Source: a virus (lineage: Duplodnaviria > Caudoviricetes). From it: a stretch of DNA of 43,310 nt. The translations under genes were made by a program, and so were the position numbers. The notes under the pieces are model-generated. The model ran no database searches and had not been told where the DNA came from. It was given only the letters and a program-made list of their open reading frames with translations. Below, piece after piece: positions 24,170-42,480 of the stretch (positions are counted from its first letter, which is position 1; each line of letters begins with the position of its first letter). The stretch covers positions 1-43,310 of the IMG/VR virus record IMGVR_UViG_3300049594_000171. One strand, given 5' to 3'.

Positions 24170-24385
24170 TTAATTATCCTTTACAGTAGATATTCGTTTA
24201 AATCTCTCATCAACAGCTTGGATTAAATCATCCAATCTTAAACGTGCCAGATCTAAATGTGTTATACAAAGTTTATTTGAGAGTTCGTACTCCGCCCTAG
24301 CTAAACACAATCTAATTAACTCAATTTGTTCAGCATTGTGTTTCAATTCCCCTTTAACCATTCCCAGATCTAAGTTTTCATTCAT
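24170..24385 (-). CDS. hypothetical protein
   Basis: 71 aa in operon. Confidence 0.65.
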   Translation of the reverse strand: MNENLDLGMVKGELKHNAEQIELIRLCLARAEYELSNKLCITHLDLARLRLDDLIQAVDERFKRISTVKDN

Positions 24386-25148
24386 GATCTTTAACGAACT
24401 TATTATCAGTTACAGTCTTCCATTTAGAGCGATCATCAATTAAGACTCCATTATGCTCCGCGTCAAGAAGAATAGCACAGCCAGCCATAACATGACCAAG
24501 GTGGTGAACACCGCTATCAGGCGCGGAGCGTTCTCCACTATACCACGCAATGAGATGACGAAGTATAGCATCGTAGAAGACAGCACTAGAAACACTACTA
24601 TCACGCCAATTAAAAAGACCATATTTTTCTGCTCCATTGTTCATTGCGGCTCCGAGACCTACCAGAGCAATCGGAGGGATAGGTGAGAATACGTGCTTCC
24701 CTTTCGCAGCTATATTTTTAAGGTTTTCTTTTAAGTTACCTTTTTTGTGAATATCTGTTAGGTGAACATCTGTTGTGTGAATATCTGTCTCTTCTTCATC
24801 GAAAGGATCCCATTTTTTGTGCTCAGCTTGTGAAACCTCGTCTCCACTATGTAACGCCTTGTCTACAGTTTCCACATAATCGTACCCAGACTTGTGTTCA
24901 GGCTTATGTTCAGGTTTTGGTGCGTCACGCCATTGGTAATCCCTAGCAAGTTTCTCTTGCCACTCTTCAATAGCTTCAAAGTCTCCGAGACAGTAAGATA
25001 AGAAATTCCTCTGTGTTGGTTCGCTGATCTTATTATCAAAAACTTTAACACAATCGCCTGGTTCAAATTGATGAATAATCTCTGATAGATTTGTTGTAAT
25101 GTCTTTTCGCTTATCATTTGAATCGTATAGTTCGTAGGTGTATCGCAT
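24378..25148 (-). CDS. dATP/dGTP diphosphohydrolase-domain protein (DUF5664-like) with N-terminal extension
   Basis: GAEKYG.FNWR, RHL..W..GE...DSG.HHLGH and DDR. Confidence 0.85.
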   Translation of the reverse strand: MRYTYELYDSNDKRKDITTNLSEIIHQFEPGDCVKVFDNKISEPTQRNFLSYCLGDFEAIEEWQEKLARDYQWRDAPKPEHKPEHKSGYDYVETVDKALHSGDEVSQAEHKKWDPFDEEETDIHTTDVHLTDIHKKGNLKENLKNIAAKGKHVFSPIPPIALVGLGAAMNNGAEKYGLFNWRDSSVSSAVFYDAILRHLIAWYSGERSAPDSGVHHLGHVMAGCAILLDAEHNGVLIDDRSKWKTVTDNKFVKDHE

Positions 25149-26104: not shown

Positions 26105-26587
26105 TTATGCACTATCCTTGTCATACAAACTCGTTTCCATATCATGTAATGGCCGCCAAGCTTGCCGCGTAAGTTCTATTGAGTGTACTATATTAGCAGT
26201 CACTAAATTCTGAGGTATGTAGTAGGTATCTCCTCCGCTGTTGTTGGTTACATTAAAAATTCCAACAAAAGCTGGATTATCACATACGTATTCACACATA
26301 TCAAAGGCATCAGCTGCTTTCAAGATATTCATGTAGAATCCATCGGAATCAACATGTCGAGTCTTGATATTTTCCAAGTCTTTAAAAGTCTCTATAAGCC
26401 AGAAGTGACCTCCGTACAGATACTCATAGGATTCTTTATCTTCTGTGTCTAAACGTAAGTTCATCAATGTAGTAGGAATTGATGAGCCGCATATTACATA
26501 ACCAATCCTACAAAATAAAGCTTCAGGGACCTCACCTGCTTTGTAAAGCGCGATAGTCTCGTAGAAGTTAGCGCCTAGTTGTTTCAT
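26105..26587 (-). CDS. hypothetical protein, paralog of intron-3 ORF 28378-28848
   Basis: GG...ET..DLE.I and T.N.GG..Y.IP..L shared. Confidence 0.8.
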   Translation of the reverse strand: MKQLGANFYETIALYKAGEVPEALFCRIGYVICGSSIPTTLMNLRLDTEDKESYEYLYGGHFWLIETFKDLENIKTRHVDSDGFYMNILKAADAFDMCEYVCDNPAFVGIFNVTNNSGGDTYYIPQNLVTANIVHSIELTRQAWRPLHDMETSLYDKDSA

Positions 26588-26846: not shown

Positions 26847-27503
26847 TTAACTGAATGCGTATTCACTCTCTAGAATCTGACTTACATCTAATTTACCGAT
26901 TTCAATATTACTCAAATCTCCTTTAATAGTTGACATCAATTGCTTAAGCGGATCGGTCTTGTACAGCTCCACAAAAGATTCTCTTACTATTCTATATAAT
27001 GTAGACATATCTCCTAGCAAACACCCATAGGAATCATGGATTGTGGTTATCTCAAAATCACACATATAAGCTGTAAGCATTAAATGTGCCGCGTCTAGAC
27101 TATGGATAGCATTGGGGCTAGCGCCTTGAGATTGTTTACGTTTGCTATGTTTCGGCAACTCCAAGTGACAAACGAATAACTGGATGTCATTGTCAAAGTA
27201 ACCCGTTCGTGTATTTCTTGGTCCTGTCGGCGGACCATACTGTATGTGTACCTTCTTTACTGTACCCTCTGTGTAATGTTGAACCACAGGAAAGTTAGTT
27301 ACTGGTACTGTCCACCTTAAGAATCTACCTTCTTCTTCTGCAACTTTACCAGCTTGCTCGAAAGAAGATAAGAGACGCATCGGACGTTTCATACTGAATT
27401 CACATGTATTGAAAATCTCGCGACCTAAGAATGCACCCCACTTATGCTCCATGGCGAGTAGAAGTTGAATGCCGTGTTTCTTACTGTCATCGATGACCTG
27501 TTC
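26847..27503 (-). CDS. T7-like RNA polymerase exon 5
   Basis: Starts EQVIDD; PNAIHSLDAAHL and motif C IHDSYG. Confidence 0.93.
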   Translation of the reverse strand, partial: EQVIDDSKKHGIQLLLAMEHKWGAFLGREIFNTCEFSMKRPMRLLSSFEQAGKVAEEEGRFLRWTVPVTNFPVVQHYTEGTVKKVHIQYGPPTGPRNTRTGYFDNDIQLFVCHLELPKHSKRKQSQGASPNAIHSLDAAHLMLTAYMCDFEITTIHDSYGCLLGDMSTLYRIVRESFVELYKTDPLKQLMSTIKGDLSNIEIGKLDVSQILESEYAFS

Positions 27504-27954
27504 CGTTGTGTTAAGCAAGGTCGTTAGGCTTGCCCATTCTTACGAATGCTGCATGTTACCATGCAGACCAGACTATATCTTCATTTGATTTACTCAAATG
27601 CACCCCGTTTCGAGTAGACTTCTACTCTACGCCCTAAGGCTAGTCGTTGAACCTTCTATCTGTAGAGTATTCTTTTTCAGAATAAGCTCACCAATTCGAA
27701 TAGGGCTTAAGCTATGGTGGTGAATACATACATTATACAAGAAACGAGGTTCTTGTCTTGCAGGTCGACCACCACAGATATCGCAACATTCTTCTGTGAG
27801 ATACCCAAACATTTCGAAGTTTTTAGTAATCAGTTCTAAGCACGGATTCTTCATAAATCCTCCAAAATATAATAAATACAGTATAGCTTGGCTGCTGATT
27901 GACCTTACAGAAGGTTTCCCAGCAATTAAAGGTGTTTTAAATGGGCAAATACTT
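27504..27954 (-). mobile_element. group I intron 4 of RNAP (451 nt)
   Basis: P1 AAUGGGU/GCCCAUU with U-G at the splice site; ACGACTA, AAGATATAGTC, GNRA P9, terminal G. Confidence 0.9.
27627..27854 (-). CDS. intron-4-encoded 75-aa Cys/His-rich protein
   Basis: GGAGG RBS; CCDICGG...CIHHH; reads into the P7 core. Confidence 0.6.
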   Translation of the reverse strand: MKNPCLELITKNFEMFGYLTEECCDICGGRPARQEPRFLYNVCIHHHSLSPIRIGELILKKNTLQIEGSTTSLRA

Positions 27955-27980
27955 ACCCATTCCATATGGTGTAGCTCCAT
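27955..27980 (-). CDS. RNAP micro-exon 4 (26 nt; (Y)GATPYGMG)
   Basis: AT GGA GCT ACA CCA TAT GGA ATG GGT; follows a terminal G and ends in U. Confidence 0.9.
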
Positions 27981-28031
27981 CGTTTTGTTCAACAGTGTTC
28001 GTTAGACACTGCCCGCGTGGTGGCGTAAGTT

Positions 28032-28400
28032 TTATTTCTTTCGTCTTATTGTGTCTTTGTCATCAGGGTCAGCTGTTAGCCATATGTTTGGCCAAGAGCT
28101 GCAATGAGGTAACATATCATCATTTGCGAAATACAAATTAACAGGCTTATACCAGTAGAAATTTTTCTCAACATTAAGTTCAAAAGGAGCTGATCGAAAT
28201 GTAGGAGAGAATTGTCTAAAATTAGTATCTCCAATTCTTCGTATCACTAATGGCTCTACAGACATCACATAATAGAGACGAAAACCCATTGACGTGCTTC
28301 TTGCAAATCCACCTACTTCATATCGTTCAGCCTTGGCAGATCTGACGTATCTTCCGCAGAAGTAAGGTAAATCTTTCTTAGTTAGTTTGTTTATTTGCAT
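28032..28400 (-). CDS. intron-3-encoded basic hypothetical protein (122 aa)
   Basis: Overlaps the upstream cargo ORF; no nuclease motif seen. Confidence 0.7.
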   Translation of the reverse strand: MQINKLTKKDLPYFCGRYVRSAKAERYEVGGFARSTSMGFRLYYVMSVEPLVIRRIGDTNFRQFSPTFRSAPFELNVEKNFYWYKPVNLYFANDDMLPHCSSWPNIWLTADPDDKDTIRRKK

Positions 28401-28848
28401 TTTTCCAATACCCGTCTGTCTCTAAGATATGCTGTTCAATCAGGGCGTCTGCCCATAACTTACGAGGAATAAAATAAGAAGTCCCACCTGCATTACTTGT
28501 ACACAATAACAACATTGCCCATTCTGAGGATGGATCATCTTTAAGGTATCTAGCAACGTCCCAGCTTTGAACACTTTCAGTGCACTTGCCAGTAATACCC
28601 TCAATCTCCTCAAGATCCTCAACCGTTTCACATACTGAAGGTTGACCGCCGAGTGTTAAATCAAAATAATCTGGACTGTCATAATGCTCAGGTTCTTCTG
28701 TTTTAAAATAGTCAAAACGTTCTTTAACACCGACAGCGGGAACGTCATCCCAACAAAGTGCTTCTAACAATTCTTCCGCAATTTCAACGGGAATCGTCTT
28801 ATTCTCTACAGCATCTTCCAATTGTTTCAAATTCTGAAATTCAATCAT
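28378..28848 (-). CDS. intron-3-encoded acidic hypothetical protein (156 aa)
   Basis: GAGG RBS before MIEFQNL; paralog of 26105-26587. Confidence 0.8.
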   Translation of the reverse strand: MIEFQNLKQLEDAVENKTIPVEIAEELLEALCWDDVPAVGVKERFDYFKTEEPEHYDSPDYFDLTLGGQPSVCETVEDLEEIEGITGKCTESVQSWDVARYLKDDPSSEWAMLLLCTSNAGGTSYFIPRKLWADALIEQHILETDGYWKNANKQTN

Positions 28849-28997
28849 TTTATCCTCTTTGTCATTAGCTATCACTATTATCTGCCACCACAGCAGCTGC
28901 ATATCACTATGCAGACCAGACTATATCATCATGCAACGGTTTCATTGTTGCAAGGAGAGCGCTTCCTACGGACTTCCGTAGTACTCTACTCAGACAC

Positions 28998-29156
28998 TTA
29001 TACCTCAACCTTCATAAATAGAAGGTACTTACGATAAGGGTAACGACGGCGCTGAGCGATTGTATAATCTTTAGCATCTTTAAATGTATTAAAATACGCA
29101 AAAATATTCTCACCCTCTACTTCCGTTATTACCATGTACTTTCGTAAGAAATTCAT
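28998..29156 (-). CDS. intron-3-encoded 52-aa ORF between the two P7 strands (not in ORF track)
   Basis: MNFLRKYMVITEVEGENIFAYFNTFKDAKDY...; fills the insertion absent from intron 2. Confidence 0.6.
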   Translation of the reverse strand: MNFLRKYMVITEVEGENIFAYFNTFKDAKDYTIAQRRRYPYRKYLLFMKVEV

Positions 29157-29274
29157 TTAGTGCCCTTTCGATAGTCGTTGCACCTTACTTTCGCTAAAGT
29201 CTTGGCTCAGGATTGTCTATTGTGTAATAAATAGGTGTCCCCTGAATTCACTCTCTTTTACTTCCGCCTTTATA

Positions 29275-29293
29275 ACGGAAGTGTCATAACATT
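29275..29293 (-). CDS. RNAP micro-exon 3 (19 nt; NVMTLP + first nt of Y)
   Basis: AAT GTT ATG ACA CTT CCG T; matches T7 motif B SVMTLAY. Confidence 0.9.
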
Positions 29294-30008
29294 CACGTTG
29301 TTAAGGATACTCGCGAGGTACCCCCTTTAAACATTGGCAAATTCACCGTATCTTTCTCTAGCTACTTCACAATATTTCTCATAAGCAGTTGTAGGATTGT
29401 TAAAGAAACCTAAAAACTTATTACGACCATCAATTTTTATTTGTGCAACCCATTTTTGTTTTTGTTTATGCCAACAAACACCTTTGTAACCACTCTTATT
29501 ATTGCTCTGGGCAACACGATTAAAGTGATTTTGTTGATGCGTACATAATCTCAGGTTTTCAATCCTATTATCATTGCGAATACGATTAATGTGATCAATT
29601 GAGAGTCCATCTGGTATAGGACCAAAGTGCATCTCCCAAATAATACGATGAATTCTTACAGACTTTCTATCGATATAAACACAACGATAACCATCGTTGG
29701 TCTCATATCCTACATCACCAGTCTTGCTGGAATCTTTCCAGAAAAGTTGGCCGTTGTCATAAATGAACAGATTATTATAATCCATGTCTTTTCTCCAAGT
29801 TTAAAGCTGCATATCACTATGCAGGTCAGACTATATCATCATACAGCGGTTCTGCTATACGGAGAGCGCTTCCACCAGGCTTCCGGTGTACTCCCTTACG
29901 GGATAGTCGTTGCACCTTACTTTTGCTTTCGCTAAAGTCTTGGCTCAGGATTGTCTATTAAATAGGTGTCCCCTGAATTCACTCTCTTTTATAAGCGCCA
30001 TGTTATTA
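29294..30008 (-). mobile_element. group I intron 2 of RNAP (715 nt)
   Basis: P1 UAAGCGU/GCGCUUA, P10 UAACAU/AUGUUA, P7 strands, terminal G. Confidence 0.92.
29327..29785 (-). CDS. intron-encoded HNH-AP2 homing endonuclease
   Basis: HRIIW...IDHINRIRNDNRIENL...N; SGYKGV AP2 domain. Confidence 0.9.
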   Translation of the reverse strand: MDYNNLFIYDNGQLFWKDSSKTGDVGYETNDGYRCVYIDRKSVRIHRIIWEMHFGPIPDGLSIDHINRIRNDNRIENLRLCTHQQNHFNRVAQSNNKSGYKGVCWHKQKQKWVAQIKIDGRNKFLGFFNNPTTAYEKYCEVARERYGEFANV

Positions 30009-30380
30009 ACGCTTAGCTATCTTCCTTCTTTCTTTCTGACTAGTTACACGATTCCAAAAGACAACTCCAGCATCGTCCATGATAGCCTCATTTGTCTCTT
30101 TGAATTTCTTTATCTCATCTATTAGTTCTTTGCGTCGCTCACTCGCTATCGGAGCCTCTTTGATCTGGTTCTTTAAGTCTATTATAGTGTCAATTGTTTT
30201 GTTTGCCCATTTGATTCGATCTTTAGGAATCCTGTCCTGTTTGATCGCTAGATTAGTCCAGACGTGTTCAGCGATATATGCGTACAAATCTCCAGGTAAT
30301 TCTGAAGGTACGAGATTTACATGTGGTGCAGTTATTTCATCACGTACGAGTGCGGACAGATGTTGCGCACCGTTATTAGA
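30009..30380 (-). CDS. T7-like RNA polymerase exon 2
   Basis: SNNGAQHLSAL...VNL...DLY...RKIAKR. Confidence 0.93.
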
Positions 30381-31158
30381 CATTTATCTTCAGAGATGTT
30401 CGTTAAGCACCTCTCGCTTGGCGGCAATCAGATATGCGTCCAACTCTTTCCCACACGTATTGAATAAATACATCCACAAGATACTCCGTATAGTTTCCCA
30501 ATAGCTGTATTTCCTAAACCTTCTTTGATAAGGTTTCTTATTTCTAGGATATCGCTGTTTTTTAATTTCACAGGACGTCCTGCGGTACGCGACTCACCTA
30601 TGGTGTGTAAGCCAGTTTTAAAAGCATGTCTATGATTGTCACCAATAGTTAACCACTCTAAATTTTCAACACAATTATTTGTTTTAATACCATCTTTATG
30701 ATTTACAGTTAACAGCTCTAAGGGGTTTGGTATAAATGCGATAGCAACAAGTCTATGTACCTTCTTTGTATAGCTCTCACTATGAAACCAAAGTGTAACC
30801 AATTCATATCCATCTTTATCTATTCGAGGTTTTATAACAGTAGCACGCTTATTACTGTACACTACACCTGTATCTGATATCAAATATTGTCCTGCGAATC
30901 CTTCTATTTCACGATAATTTACCATTCAAAAACTCCTTTTAACTTTCAAAGCTGCCGCCAAGCAGCTGCATATTACTATGCAGATGAGACTATATCTTCA
31001 CCCTTTGCAAGGTGTCTTGTGCTTCCACTGGACTTCCAGTGTACGCCTGTTAAGGCTAGTCGTTACACCTATAACCCTCTTTAAGATGGTTATTTGGCTC
31101 GGTATTGTCCCGTAGGAGTTCCACCGAATTCACAAGATTTAAAGACAGCTACTAATTA
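30381..31158 (-). mobile_element. group I intron 1 of RNAP (778 nt)
   Basis: Interrupts motif A DG|SNNG; starts TAA, ends G; P7 strands; 11-bp stem (30416-30426/30953-30963) encloses the ORF. Confidence 0.92.
30428..30925 (-). CDS. intron-encoded NUMOD4-HNH homing endonuclease (I-HmuI-like)
   Basis: Y.ISDTG.V.S, VHRLVA.AFIPN, VNHKDG.K.NN...NLEW...N..H, C-terminal HTH. Confidence 0.92.
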   Translation of the reverse strand: MVNYREIEGFAGQYLISDTGVVYSNKRATVIKPRIDKDGYELVTLWFHSESYTKKVHRLVAIAFIPNPLELLTVNHKDGIKTNNCVENLEWLTIGDNHRHAFKTGLHTIGESRTAGRPVKLKNSDILEIRNLIKEGLGNTAIGKLYGVSCGCIYSIRVGKSWTHI

Positions 31159-32343
31159 ACCGTCTACGAACACCTCAAGTTGCGACTCATAGTTGAAATT
31201 GTCGATATCCACATCTTTCAAATTCAACTGCCAGGTTCTTAGTTTAAACAATTCAATACAAGCAGCAATGAATTGCCAAGGCTTATCAGCTGTCATCCAC
31301 CCTTGATTTACTTTAGGGTTAGCAGCGTAACTAAGAATAATCTCCTCATTATCAAGAACCCATTCGAATCTGTCTTTAAGTGGAATTTTATCCGACTTCA
31401 ATCCATCATCTCTTCCACAATCTCCGGCCCAGTTATTAGCGATGCTAACACAAAGCCAGAAGAAACCATTCTTTCCTATCGGTTTTCTATCTTCACGGAG
31501 TAATAGACCTTTAGCGTAATCGCTACCTTGCTCGTGTAGAAATGCTGTGTTTGCATAGATTCTACCACGAAAGTCTGTCGTATATAAATGATAGAATGTC
31601 TTGTGTAGAAAACGCTTTGCTATGCTTCCGATAGTTTGTGCTTCTCTTTGTTTAGTTGCGCGAGCCTCAGCATTGTGCTGGCTCCAGATGTCATTAAAAG
31701 CTTGTGTCTTATTTCTTAATGCCCAAACAGATAGTTCATACACATTAAAATTTATCTGCCACCCTGTTTTCATTTTTCTATTTAATACGTTAAAAATGAT
31801 TGGATGTGTCTCAGGTAGGAGTGCATTAAGAACCTCTGAACTTTCTGTCTTAACGAGTGGAATGCCTGTTACATGATACGCGGTTTCCCATGGAGCGTAT
31901 GGCTCAGTAGATGGTAATTTTTCAGTTACATTGAATACGATAGAGTTGTAAAGCATCTCTAATACATCTTCTTTTAGTACAGTGAAGATGTATGTACCAT
32001 GACCTCCATTACCGCTACTCAATAGAACATGACCTATTCCACACTTCTCAAATGTGTATAGAATAAAAGCGCCTGTTCTAGCAGCCAAGGCGGAATTGCG
32101 TTTCTGTTTAGTCTTATTTCGAATAGTATGTCCGATAGCGCATATTACTTCTACCATTAAGGCAGGCTTCTTTTGTTTATTTCGTGAATGAAGAAATATA
32201 ACAGCAGTTGCTATGTCTATCATTGTTTCAATGGACATCTTTTCCGATGACACAATTGTTTTTAAAAAACTAACAGGATTCTGTGGTGCTAGCTCAGACA
32301 CCAACCTTTCTTTTAATGAATCAATTAGTATTTTTTTGTTCAT
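31159..32343 (-). CDS. T7-like RNA polymerase exon 1
   Basis: DFRGRIY, QGSD..KGLL, ADKPWQFIA; ends VFVDG. Confidence 0.93.
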
Positions 32344-33031: not shown

Positions 33032-33362
33032 TATAGTCTCCTAAACATAAGGTTTGAAACATGAGAGGCTCTCAGTGCTCTCGGTACTGCTTAAATACTC
33101 TAATTGATTAAAGTATTTAAGGTTAGATCCTACGGTGTTTTGTAAGATCCTGCCCTACACTGAATAAGACTGGTTTGCGCGCTCAGTGCTCCGACGCTGC
33201 TGTTAAATAATTCTATCTAGATTACCATATATGCCAGTCGCATATTACTCTCATCTAGAAAGCCTTATTAATAAAACCATATAACTTACACCCGAAGGTT
33301 AAGGTCATATAGCCCAAGCCTACCTATAAGGTCAGTTGACTTGTGTCTCTGAAATAGCTATT

Positions 33363-33628
33363 GTGTTATAATATACTAAAAAATAAATGGGGACTTTACT
33401 TCTCGTTAGCACACATGGTAGATCCCCAGCCTCCATGCTAAAGTCTAACCTAACCTATTTAGTCCATAGGTGGACCTATTTAACCCATAGGTGGGGTGTT
33501 ATAATATACTAAAAAATAAATGGGGACTTTACTTCTCGTTAGCACACATGGTAGATCCCCAGCCTCCATGCTAAAGTCTAACCTAACCTATTTAGTCCAT
33601 AGGTGGACCTATTTAACCCATAGGTGGG
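33363..33628. repeat. 133-bp near-perfect tandem duplication
   Basis: Units start at 33363 and 33496; third diverged copy at about 33761-33874. Confidence 0.95.
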
Positions 33629-33885
33629 TGTTTCTGCTGCTATATAATTGCGACAGTCAGCAGTTATGGCTGAACAGTCTAGATGGGTCGTCATCATAAC
33701 ATGACGTCGCTGTTTCCTCTAAGCGGCCAGCGCAGGCCTTGTTACTAATTTATGATTTAATAGGGACTTTACTTCTCGTTAGCACATATACCGGATCCCT
33801 AGTTCGGTATACTAAAGTCTAACCTAACCTATTTAGTCCATAGGTGGACCTATTTAACCCATAGGTGGGGTGTTTGAGTCTCCTC
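33363..33885 (-). ncRNA. candidate structured ncRNA with three copies of a pseudoknotted module
   Basis: Compensatory changes between copies, no long ORF, motif A immediately upstream. Confidence 0.55.
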
Positions 33886-39915: not shown

Positions 39916-42480
39916 ATGGCCCTCGATTATGGCTTAAAAGGCTCAATCGATATCGCGGACAGTCGTACCCGTGCGCTGACGCTACGGGCTGATGGTGAGC
40001 CTGTATTCAACCCTGCTGCTAATCGTTGGGCTGATGAACTGAAGGCAAGCGATGGCGCGTGGCGGTTCTTGCGCGGTGGTAGTGCGGCTGGCCGGGGTGT
40101 GGGCAACGTGTTTGACGCTGCGCTGGCGGATAACTTCACGGTGTTGTTGCTGGTGCGTGGTAAGAAGCCGAATTACACTGCTATTCTCAACAAGCTTTCT
40201 GCCGGGGCAAGTAAGGGTGTGGCAATTTATATGGCCCCCCAATCTGCAGGTGACGGTACTTATTTGCGCCTTGATCCTGTTGTCGGGTCAGGGACATACC
40301 GAGCAAACAGAAAGCAATCGAAAGACCTTAACTGGCACTGGTACGCAGTCTCTGTGTCAGGCGTCAATGCTTATTCATGGCTTGATGCCGGTGAAAGGAA
40401 ATCGGACACTAAACCAGCCGGCGACCTAGCAAACACTCACCCGGTTACTCTGGCTACTGGTGGCAACCAAGTCAACATCGCCGCCACCCTAATCTACTCT
40501 CGCGTCCTCACCGACGCCGAAGTCCAGTCCCTCATGTCCGGTCGCACGATGCCGAAAGAGGTATCAGGACTGATTGGGTATTACAAGTTCAACGAGGGCA
40601 GCGGTACGACCTGCACGGATCATTCTGGGCAGGGGAATCATCTGACTTATACCAGTCCGGTGTGGGAGACGTTTGATCCCGCATCCACGGCAAAGACCAA
40701 CTTCGCCAGCGGCCAGCCCTACACTCCCGCCGTCCTCAAGACTCAATCATGGTGGGATTGCCTGCCGCCGGCTATAGCTGACCCGGAGATGATGGGGTGC
40801 GCGCATATCGTGACCAGTGCGTTTAGCGTCTCCGGTAGTGCACTCATTGATGCTGCTGTTATGGGCAATTTCACTGTTTGCGGTTGGAGAAAAAGCAATA
40901 CCGGACGCGGAACACAGATGCTTTTCAGTGCGGGTAGCGCTAATGCGTACCCAGTCAGGTTAATGATTTCTGATGGGTTGGTTGGGCTGCGCTTTGGTAA
41001 TGGCTCTACTGAAACGGTCAATTTATTCTCCAGAGTTAATAAGTGGACTACTGAAAATCGATGGGTGTTTTGGGCTATTGCTGTCAGCGGAAGTAGCGCA
41101 ACACTGTATCTAAACGGCACACCGATTGAGACTATTTCCGTATCTGGTGTCCGCGCCGCAGGGATGCAATCATGGTTCTGGAACAACGGCGGGAGGCACA
41201 CCCTTCGTAGTTCGCGCCTATTCTCCCGCGCCCTCTCCGCATCCGAGGTCAACGAGCTATTTTTGACGGATAGGATCAGTAATCGCACGAAGGCTGAAGT
41301 GACGTATGGGCCTGAACTGGTGACGAATGGCGACTTCTCCAACGGGACGACGGGGTGGCAGCTTGTTGGCACTTCGATGGCAGTTGAGTCGGGCCGCTTG
41401 CGAGTCACTGGTGCGGCGAACACCGATCGCGCAGTCCAAAATGTGGCGCTTGTCGTTGGTAAGTCCTATAAACTGACTTATTCGATGTACGCCGGGACTG
41501 TCACGAACAACCCAAACATCGTCATGGACAACGGGCAGGGTAGTGGCGTTACGGGGCAGTTTGGGGAAAACCTGTCGGTTGTTTTCAATTGTACCGTTGC
41601 GAATAGTCAGGTGTGGCTGCGGGCCAATGCTGGTGAGGCCCTGTTCGACAACATCTCCGTCCGCGAAATCACCGGAGTAACCCCCGGCTTAGTAGGCGAA
41701 TGGCTATGCAACACCCCGCACAGCACGACGATCAGCGACACATCGGGTAACGGGCTGCACACGACTACGGGTAATCCTCGACTGCTGGATAGTCCGTATC
41801 AGGTGGCAAGGCGGAAGCGGTTTGGGAAGCAGTTGAAAGTGTCTGCTGGAGGTTACGCTAGAGTTCAGTCTGCTGATGTGAAAAATGCACTGAATAACAG
41901 TGCAGTGTTGACGGTATCGCAATGGGTTAAGCCTGTGCGTTTGCAAAATGCCGTGTCAATTATTAGTGGAATTCTTACGTCAGCGGCCAATACTGGAGTT
42001 GGGGTATCTAATGCATCAGGTGGCTTCATCTCTTTATATGCAAGAGAAAGTCAATCTGCTGGTGCTGTTTCGCTTGTTTCACCCAGAAGGTTCCAAGAGT
42101 TTATCGGTCAATGGATTCTCTTGTCCGGTGAAGTTGATTATGCAAACGACTTGGGAAAGATTTACCTGAATGGTCAGTTGATTGCACAGGGTGCGATGGC
42201 CTTCACTGATACAAAATACACAGATACGGGCAATCCGTATATTTACGCGGCTAGTAGTAACACCAGCGAAACCCACGCAATCGACTCCGCCCGCATCTAC
42301 AACCGCGCCCTAACCGCAGCCGAGCACTATCAGCTATTCCTCGATAACGCCCCGCGCAACGGACTCATAGCTGAGTACCTTTTTGACAATGACGTAAGCA
42401 ACTGTCAGGACACGTCGGGCAATGGGTTCCACGCCACTTGGAGCGGGATATCGGCGGCTAACTATGTGAGTGAACTATAA
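39916..42480 (+). CDS. LamG/concanavalin A-like multidomain virion protein with carbohydrate-binding insert
   Basis: Three W.....V...Y.(N/D)G...R(A/V)L(T/S)..E...GL......D.SG.G units; GPELVTNGDFS module. Confidence 0.85.
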   Translation: MALDYGLKGSIDIADSRTRALTLRADGEPVFNPAANRWADELKASDGAWRFLRGGSAAGRGVGNVFDAALADNFTVLLLVRGKKPNYTAILNKLSAGASKGVAIYMAPQSAGDGTYLRLDPVVGSGTYRANRKQSKDLNWHWYAVSVSGVNAYSWLDAGERKSDTKPAGDLANTHPVTLATGGNQVNIAATLIYSRVLTDAEVQSLMSGRTMPKEVSGLIGYYKFNEGSGTTCTDHSGQGNHLTYTSPVWETFDPASTAKTNFASGQPYTPAVLKTQSWWDCLPPAIADPEMMGCAHIVTSAFSVSGSALIDAAVMGNFTVCGWRKSNTGRGTQMLFSAGSANAYPVRLMISDGLVGLRFGNGSTETVNLFSRVNKWTTENRWVFWAIAVSGSSATLYLNGTPIETISVSGVRAAGMQSWFWNNGGRHTLRSSRLFSRALSASEVNELFLTDRISNRTKAEVTYGPELVTNGDFSNGTTGWQLVGTSMAVESGRLRVTGAANTDRAVQNVALVVGKSYKLTYSMYAGTVTNNPNIVMDNGQGSGVTGQFGENLSVVFNCTVANSQVWLRANAGEALFDNISVREITGVTPGLVGEWLCNTPHSTTISDTSGNGLHTTTGNPRLLDSPYQVARRKRFGKQLKVSAGGYARVQSADVKNALNNSAVLTVSQWVKPVRLQNAVSIISGILTSAANTGVGVSNASGGFISLYARESQSAGAVSLVSPRRFQEFIGQWILLSGEVDYANDLGKIYLNGQLIAQGAMAFTDTKYTDTGNPYIYAASSNTSETHAIDSARIYNRALTAAEHYQLFLDNAPRNGLIAEYLFDNDVSNCQDTSGNGFHATWSGISAANYVSEL

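Follow-up and report, generated by a model that had tools for sequence, protein, structure and literature searches.

The stretch of DNA described here, the whole of the virus record IMGVR_UViG_3300049594_000171 (43,310 bases, 40% G+C; "the window" below), carries on its minus strand a putative T7-type RNA polymerase (RNAP) gene whose five exons, two of them micro-exons, are separated by four group I introns (Table 1). When the exons are joined they give 2259 nucleotides (nt) that encode 752 amino acids (aa) plus a stop codon and contain no internal stop, and all four upstream exons end in T and all four introns in G, features that a preliminary description of this stretch had noted and that we confirm. 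The joined protein is 53–64% identical to the best 120 of 229 intronless homologues and is collinear with every one of the 120, with no insertion or deletion in residues 385–405 and 512–545, the regions that contain all four junctions; K518, R519, M522, T523, Y526, G527, G532, G534 and Q536 are invariant in the intronless-homologue alignment. Equivalent positions in T7 RNAP were read through homologue P0001 aligned to the T7 protein: D394 corresponds to D537, K518 to K631 and Y526 to Y639, the IHDS in the D690 region is motif C, and the equivalents of motif A (D537), motif B (R627, K631, Y639, G640) and motif C (HD, D812) of single-subunit RNAPs, which the preliminary description had recognized, are all there in order. 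The codon of the Y639 equivalent is itself split (T/AT at Y526), again as proposed, and no open reading frame (ORF) call recovers either of the motif B micro-exons, which had been said to be invisible to ORF callers. By its sequence the gene is predicted to encode a T7-family single-subunit RNAP (PF00940) with promoter-specific transcription. Its 752 aa compare with the 883 aa of T7 RNAP, to which motifs A, B and C align, and it lies, at the identities given above, within a large uncultured group; among named phages, exons 1 and 5 match roseophage DSS3_VP1 (Naomviridae) best, and the RNAP of that phage is 35% identical to the joined protein, its gene being uninterrupted.

Table 1. Exons, introns and associated reading frames of the RNAP locus in the window.
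Feature	Positions	Strand	Length	Characteristics
RNAP exon 1	31159..32343	-	1185 nt	aa 1-395; ends two codons past motif A catalytic Asp (T7 D537 equivalent); PF00940
Intron 1	30381..31158	-	778 nt	two codons past T7 D537; RF00028 83.2 bits; 7-bp P1, 5-bp P10; first codon is an in-frame stop
NUMOD4-HNH endonuclease ORF	30428..30925	-	165 aa	P9.1 loop of intron 1; 61-65% identical to same-site HNHs
RNAP exon 2	30009..30380	-	372 nt	aa 396-519; ends at T7 K631/R632 equivalents; PF00940
Intron 2	29294..30008	-	715 nt	after T7 K631-R632; RF00028 79.3 bits; 7-bp P1, 7-bp P10 with exon 3
HNH endonuclease ORF	29327..29785	-	152 aa	P9.1 loop of intron 2; 60-63% identical to same-site HNHs; weak AP2 match below cut-off
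Micro-exon 3	29275..29293	-	19 nt	NVMTLP + first base of Y639-equivalent codon
Intron 3	27981..29274	-	1294 nt	within T7 Y639 codon; RF00028 58.5 bits; 8-bp P1, 3-bp P10; no HNH; three passenger ORFs
Passenger ORF C	28998..29156	-	52 aa	P7.1 region of intron 3; weak similarity (31%, E 4e-5) to the gene directly after RNAP in locus L048
Passenger ORF A	28378..28848	-	156 aa	P9.1 loop of intron 3; intact member of unnamed RNAP-downstream family
Passenger ORF B	28032..28400	-	122 aa	P9.1 loop of intron 3; no relative found
Micro-exon 4	27955..27980	-	26 nt	remainder of Tyr codon + GATPYGMG
Intron 4	27504..27954	-	451 nt	after T7 R647 position; RF00028 72.1 bits; 8-bp P1, 3-bp P10; no HNH; ~200-nt P6 insertion
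P6-insertion ORF	27627..27854	-	75 aa	intron 4; runs into P7 5' strand; no relative found
RNAP exon 5	26847..27503	-	657 nt	aa 535-752; motif C IHDS; PF00940
Free-standing ORF A-family copy	26105..26587	-	 	second gene after RNAP; 27% identical locally to ORF A

The 5' cores of all four introns score above the Rfam RF00028 gathering cut-off of 50 bits, with E-values from 7.7e-20 to 1.9e-12, in agreement with the earlier assignment to group I. All four have ACGACUA and GAUAUAGUC as P7 strands and a GNRA-capped P9, as had been described (caps GUAA, GUGA, GUGA and GUAA in introns 1 to 4), and P3 forms 7/7 pairs in introns 1–3 and 6/7 in intron 4. Each P1 has a U-G pair at the splice site; a 7-bp P1, which the preliminary description gave for introns 2–4, holds for intron 2 and also for intron 1, and the P1 of introns 3 and 4 proved to be 8 bp. 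Each guide pairs at least 6 bases at 2–4 further U positions of the joined mRNA, and we therefore count P1 as supporting evidence and not as proof. Subgroup IA2 introns have hairpins P7.1 and P7.2 between the P7 5' strand and the P3 3' strand, as well as P9.1/P9.2; in the region between P7 and P3 two hairpins fold in introns 1, 2 and 4, and intron 3 has the 52-codon ORF C there. From these folds guanosine-dependent self-splicing of all four is predicted (general features of group I introns are given in PMC3984707).

Among 80 related viral loci, 21 are interrupted and 59 have no visible interruption, though some of the latter are truncated and one (L076) probably contains a cut-off intron. The introns lie at aa 395 (4 loci), 519 (5), 525+1 (10), 534 (2), 252 (3) and 259 (1), and thus all four sites of the window recur in relatives along with two further sites; a metagenome scan (8 loci) gave two more with an intron at aa 534. 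Locus L089, found by a targeted scan for the 19-nt exon pattern that returned 14 loci with this one genuine, encodes an RNAP 46% identical to that of the window and has introns at 395, 519 and 525+1 and the same 19-nt micro-exon; L101 and L107 came from a separate scan. The introns of L048, at 519 and 534, flank a 45-nt exon, and all four introns occur together in no other locus examined. Rfam at the gathering cut-off confirmed 10 introns in 6 of the 11 relative loci tested, and at site 525 the guide co-varies with the exon (CCG/GCGG, CCA/GUGG and UCG/GCGA), compensatory changes within P1. Three-base-pair P10 helices like those of introns 3 and 4 are found in their same-site relatives as well.

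When the hosts are clustered at 90% identity, 18 of the 58 clusters (which include the window and DSS3_VP1) have an intron and 40 have none, and RNAPs that are 92–98% identical nevertheless differ in intron content. On a host tree, from which L005, L021, L063, L081, L100 and L107 were omitted for partial coverage, presence at individual sites is scattered, with 5 changes for 5 carrier tips, 6 for 6, 7 for 9 and 4 for 4. The local conservation of all six sites falls in the 82nd–92nd percentile, which agrees with the general preference of group I introns for conserved sites (PMC2814812). The guide of intron 3 also pairs 8 bases with the DFR/G site at aa 259, the exact position of the intron in L079 (L079:6199-7000), and the core of that intron groups with the site-525 introns (support 0.91); this is likely a case of an intron reaching a new site via guide complementarity. 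A blastn search of the intron 2 core against named phages gave no match annotated as an RNA polymerase gene among the 40 matches listed of 489.

The ORFs in introns 1 and 2 both match PF13392 (HNH_3) above its cut-off, contain the HNH motif and are bracketed by P9.1 stems. HNH proteins of these loci group by site, with 60–65% identity within a site and no more than 44% to other HNHs. On the other hand, none of the four ORFs of introns 3 and 4 matches a Pfam or PHROG family at E 0.01 or contains the HNH motif. Among motif B introns that stand alone, 14 of 17 have an HNH gene (L054, which the HNH pattern missed, is counted on a 53% match), and in the three genes with clustered motif B introns there is exactly one HNH per cluster (3/7 introns). 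One HNH per cluster fits co-conversion as described for T4, in which trans homing and co-conversion reach up to 2 kb and can mobilize a defunct intron (PMC2790892). Introns 3 and 4 probably hitch-hike with intron 2.

Intron 3 contains passenger genes. Relatives of ORF A were found in 49 loci, and in 33 of these they lie within 350 nt of the RNAP stop codon; ORF A keeps the invariant residues of this family, whose members are ~130–170 aa long, share the motif GG...E..EDL..I...D...TNNAGG..Y.IP and in many relatives stand right after RNAP (e.g., L020:8806-9300). In a tree of the family ORF A groups with the copies of L020, L023 and L031 (Shimodaira–Hasegawa-like approximate likelihood ratio test, SH-aLRT, 97) and apart from the window's own free-standing copy, and for this reason we think it was probably captured from a related phage. 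The predicted structure of ORF A is confident (predicted local distance difference test score, pLDDT, 95.6), and the model has no match at E 0.001 in BFVD and a best Z of 2.6 among 48,161 chains, which is not proof of a new fold; the protein has no Pfam or PHROG family, no usable Atlas match and no match in named phages. The family could be a polymerase partner or a host-takeover factor. Searches with ORF B returned only ORF B itself, and the 75-aa ORF of intron 4 may not be a gene. An ORF A relative that is 63% identical (P0122) and a one-residue variant of ORF C are both on record with a longest contig of 1642 bases, and this identical figure suggests that a second cargo-bearing allele exists; a locus look-up for P0122 returned none. 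In one contig of run X7 the 875-nt P9.1 insert of intron 3 is replaced by 5 letters (a single contig, with a short side of 43 letters). The site-534 introns of L101 (L101:5209-6000) and L107 (L107:181-947) also hold non-HNH ORFs (173 aa in P6 in L101; 142 aa in P6 and 60 aa in the P7.1 region in L107), which have no family match. In the main texts accessible to us we found no paper on passenger genes in phage group I introns.

How might such closely spaced introns be removed accurately? In-frame stop codons are met 0, 0, 1 and 5 codons into introns 1 to 4, and translation halting early within an intron is the usual arrangement (PMC3073962). Each guide pairs 7–8 bases with its own junction and only 2–3 with the other three. 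Bases 2–8 of exon 3 pair in the P10 of intron 2 and its last 8 bases in the P1 of intron 3; since these helices do not overlap, no order of splicing should be forced. Of the 34 cores compared, that of intron 2 is most similar to that of intron 3 and vice versa (79%, against no more than 72% to same-site introns), and this similarity, a 34-nt identical block and identical P3 strands suggest gene conversion between the two neighbors. The likelier splicing error would be loss of the 19-nt exon alone through a hybrid of introns 2 and 3, which shifts the frame and gives a stop after aa 553; skipping of a single micro-exon gives a stop after aa 553 or 525. The preliminary description had proposed that skipping both micro-exons would keep the frame and give an inactive isoform. 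The first part is correct, since the product would be an in-frame protein of 737 aa that lacks the equivalents of S633–R647, but the isoform itself is not supported: the P3 strand of intron 2 makes 3/7 pairs with that of intron 4, P10 with exon 5 would be 1 bp and the cross P1 helices 2–3 bp, and base-pairing thus appears to argue against such a double skip.

We consider it likely that this T7-family RNAP gene acquired its four predicted self-splicing introns through endonuclease-driven homing into conserved active-site codons, and not for the sake of timing. Ribosomes would stop at the in-frame stops 0–5 codons inside each intron, each ribozyme would select its own 5' site by its 7–8-bp P1, and the micro-exons would be just long enough to accommodate the upstream P10 and the downstream P1 without overlap, with no order imposed. 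In mixed infections the HNH enzymes of introns 1 and 2 would nick intron-free alleles, and introns 3 and 4, which lie 19 and 45 nt from the intron 2 site, would be copied along with intron 2 as a ~2.5-kb block and so would need no endonuclease of their own. Their freed loops could then have taken up genes of related phages, predicted to be expressed, that would be carried onward with the block, and mis-splicing would threaten chiefly through a hybrid of introns 2 and 3, which are nearly identical, with loss of the 19-nt exon and a frameshift as the outcome.

Several observations weigh against this explanation. Scans for a further gene with a 26-nt exon gave 4, 1 and at least 120 loci, none with an RNAP match; Rfam at the gathering cut-off missed 5 of the 11 relative loci (L002, L028, L079, L101 and L107), though P7/P9 motifs are present in them; P10 is weak (3 bp) in introns 3 and 4; the sites are conserved but outside the top 5%; and the cluster counts are tiny and not independent. 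Presence of any intron is also mildly clustered on the host tree, itself a quick one with a weak backbone (12 changes against a shuffle mean of 15.4; 2.6% of shuffles are as low), and because it is more clustered than shuffled labels it points to some inheritance of the introns by descent.

An elaboration of homing that we regard as possible, though on the doubtful side, is that the motif B introns form a single ~2.5-kb mobile cassette spread by the intron 2 HNH, that the endonuclease-free introns serve as cargo bays which, from within the active-site codons, move captured and expressed phage genes from one related phage to another, and that a hybrid ribozyme of introns 2 and 3 sends a measurable part of the transcripts into a frameshifted dead end and thereby sets the RNAP level.

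Three other explanations were weighed against acquisition by homing. The introns could be kept as endonuclease weapons against co-infecting relatives, with the motif B cluster shielding its bearer by occupying the target sites of rivals, and interference of this kind has been shown for the intron HNH gp210 of phiPA3 against the phiKZ RNAP gene (PMC11620839) and a weapon role has been proposed for Bodo saltans virus (PMC5871332). Relatives do have circulating HNHs directed at these four sites, and introns 3 and 4, though they lack an HNH, have been retained and still interrupt target sites. However, in phiPA3 the effect needs a phage nucleus to block repair, and the window gives no hint of one, and the presence of same-site introns in unrelated hosts indicates that homing does succeed. 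This idea overlaps the one we prefer and sequence alone cannot separate them; we judge it improbable as the reason for the introns' persistence.

Less probable again is that the introns have been domesticated as a timer or sensor in which serial splicing delays or gates RNAP and an inactive isoform is made deliberately by micro-exon skipping. Since RNAP needs the success of all four steps, some delay and loss would be inevitable; the double skip does preserve the frame; a reference listed in PMC3073962 reports, by its title, that T4 intron splicing is tied to translation and growth state; and exon skipping has been reported in Twort orf142 (PMC10136302) and in a Bastillevirinae terminase gene (PMC11878797). 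The preliminary description had indeed suggested splicing as a timer for the phage program, but this is left unsupported because most relatives run the same program without introns and the intron combinations vary, even between nearly identical RNAPs and with the full set of four seen only in the window. In addition, the pairings disfavor the in-frame double skip and single skips shift the frame. Any delay is a by-product, and no test points to selection for splicing delay. The further claim that phage transcription depends on four splicing events is too wide, since each of the five complete relatives checked (5/5) contains a second, divergent RNAP-like long ORF, where PF00940 matches weakly inside a very long frame or over more than one (in DSS3_VP1 there is a "head morphogenesis" gene of 1463 codons). 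We infer a second polymerase for the window phage also (the window ends before that region), and because of these second ORFs the spliced enzyme probably handles only part of the phage program. In the record of L020 the second RNAP-like region (G001:C1 ~63792-66117) matches PF00940 in two frames (1103 and 460 aa) and may itself be interrupted.

A final possibility, that this is a defunct or wrongly assembled gene and another polymerase serves the phage, is very improbable. Relatives do have the second RNAP-like ORF and no single contig covers the whole locus, but every exon is free of stops and frameshifts, none of the catalytic motifs is lost, both micro-exons are spanned by contigs of runs other than the possible source, and distant relatives share the intron sites and the 19-nt exon. 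The gaps in coverage arise where 33–34-nt identical blocks common to introns 2 and 3 break contigs in the public assemblies. Sixteen runs hold at least 0.27 of the locus, all labelled lake water metagenomes (several may share one campaign, and one may be the source of the record), and no RNA run is listed for it; the bridging contigs, across exon 3 in X3, X4 and X2 and across exon 4 in X2, X3 and X4, have no or few differences from the window and are evidence against mis-assembly. In run X7, one contig joins exon 2 and the beginning of intron 2 to the intron 3 core; we attribute this to the assembler crossing between the introns at the identical block, since a second contig of that run, a variant intron 2 core, stops exactly there, and a true deletion is the alternative. 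Contigs of eight DNA runs, of which X1 may be the source, contain no joint at an exact splice site, but contigs drop rare variants and intron-free alleles may persist.

Small exons and their skipping are known from Twort and Bastillevirinae (PMC10136302, PMC11878797). The nearest parallel is Twort orf142, whose three group I introns include two similar IA2 introns flanking a 23-nt exon that is retained or skipped, the skip being attributed to a proposed joint ribozyme (PMC10136302). Like it, the RNAP gene has tandem group I introns with a micro-exon of about 20 nt between two near-identical ones (introns 2 and 3, with 79% identical cores and identical P3); unlike it, there are four introns, two consecutive micro-exons and an RNAP host gene cut in its catalytic motifs, two introns keep an HNH and one has passenger genes, and skipping is here a prediction. 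Introns have been described in the multisubunit RNAP beta gene of Pseudomonas phage phiPA3 (with HNH gp210; PMC11620839), in AR9/PBS1-type virion RNAP beta' genes (group I and group II; PMC12350094) and in polr2a/polr2b of Bodo saltans virus, which include endonuclease-less offspring (PMC5871332). The present locus resembles these in having HNH-bearing group I introns inserted at conserved residues of a viral RNAP and endonuclease-less neighbors proposed to depend on a neighbor's enzyme, but those polymerases are multisubunit double-psi-barrel enzymes and this one is a single-subunit enzyme of the T7/Pol-A fold, and across the relatives here the introns and HNHs form a separate lineage for each site. 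The T4 nrdB intron is mobilized in trans by MobE (PMC2790892), and introns 3 and 4 are predicted to spread in a similar way, with an active HNH close by driving their co-conversion; MobE is a free-standing gene, whereas the helper here would be a neighboring intron 19–45 nt away. Four inserts in one phage gene are no record, since the major capsid gene of a crAss-like Zeta phage, in an intron- and intein-rich genome, is in five fragments (PMC7886860), but that is another gene in another phage group, and no micro-exons in catalytic motifs are described for it in the accessible text.

In the main texts accessible to us no group I intron is reported in a single-subunit phage RNAP, and none is described in the accessible parts of PMC8541194, PMC5746245 and PMC11845039; the host-gene tables of PMC12350094 and PMC11878797 could list one. 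Well supported by its sequence, the locus is a dense case of a known intron habit in a host gene for which we found no report, with a putatively shared endonuclease and cargo as its twist. It extends group I intron invasion to single-subunit T7-type polymerases and shows that, in a large group of uncultured phages of freshwater type, introns share six landing sites in the motifs of this polymerase. Since ORF callers miss the catalytic O-helix, such polymerases are lost from annotation and from the mining of new T7-like enzymes. The locus also offers a small natural system in which to study how adjacent ribozymes keep 19–26-nt exons from being skipped, and it bears on endonuclease sharing by clustered introns and on useful genes in endonuclease-free introns; it indicates no new kind of regulation.

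The other genes of the window include replication genes on the minus strand (DNA polymerase, exonuclease, primase/helicase, ribonucleotide reductase and ligase) and a terminase gene on the plus strand. The order RNAP – DNA polymerase – exonuclease – primase/helicase – ribonucleotide reductase is similar in DSS3_VP1. Members of the Naomviridae reportedly have dU-substituted DNA, judging by the title of PMC8323127; we do not assign the window to this family, as the comparison consists of the RNAP (35%) and gene order on a 43-kb fragment. A scan of the window for direct repeats brought out no promoter set for the RNAP. An ORF-poor stretch upstream of the early genes (33354-33874) contains two tandem 133-nt copies, 97% identical, and a partial third, possibly an origin, a terminal array or a promoter array.

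The fragment is heavily invaded, with five introns, inteins and a free HNH gene (19958-19416). The fifth group I intron (13536-12718, minus strand, 819 nt) splits the ribonucleotide reductase gene at FNP/CAEQ and scores 31.8 and 22.5 bits with Rfam in two parts, both under the gathering cut-off; it holds a LAGLIDADG_2 ORF (13482-12817) placed before P7. Inteins with a LAGLIDADG domain are found in the C-terminal part of the reductase (12753-10747, minus strand, ~aa 141–487 of the ORF) and in the primase/helicase (17206-14588, minus strand). Elsewhere, a minus-strand gene at 24378-25148 encodes a protein with a dATP/dGTP diphosphohydrolase domain, and an 854-aa protein with laminin-G-like lectin domains is encoded on the plus strand after the terminase (39916-42480).

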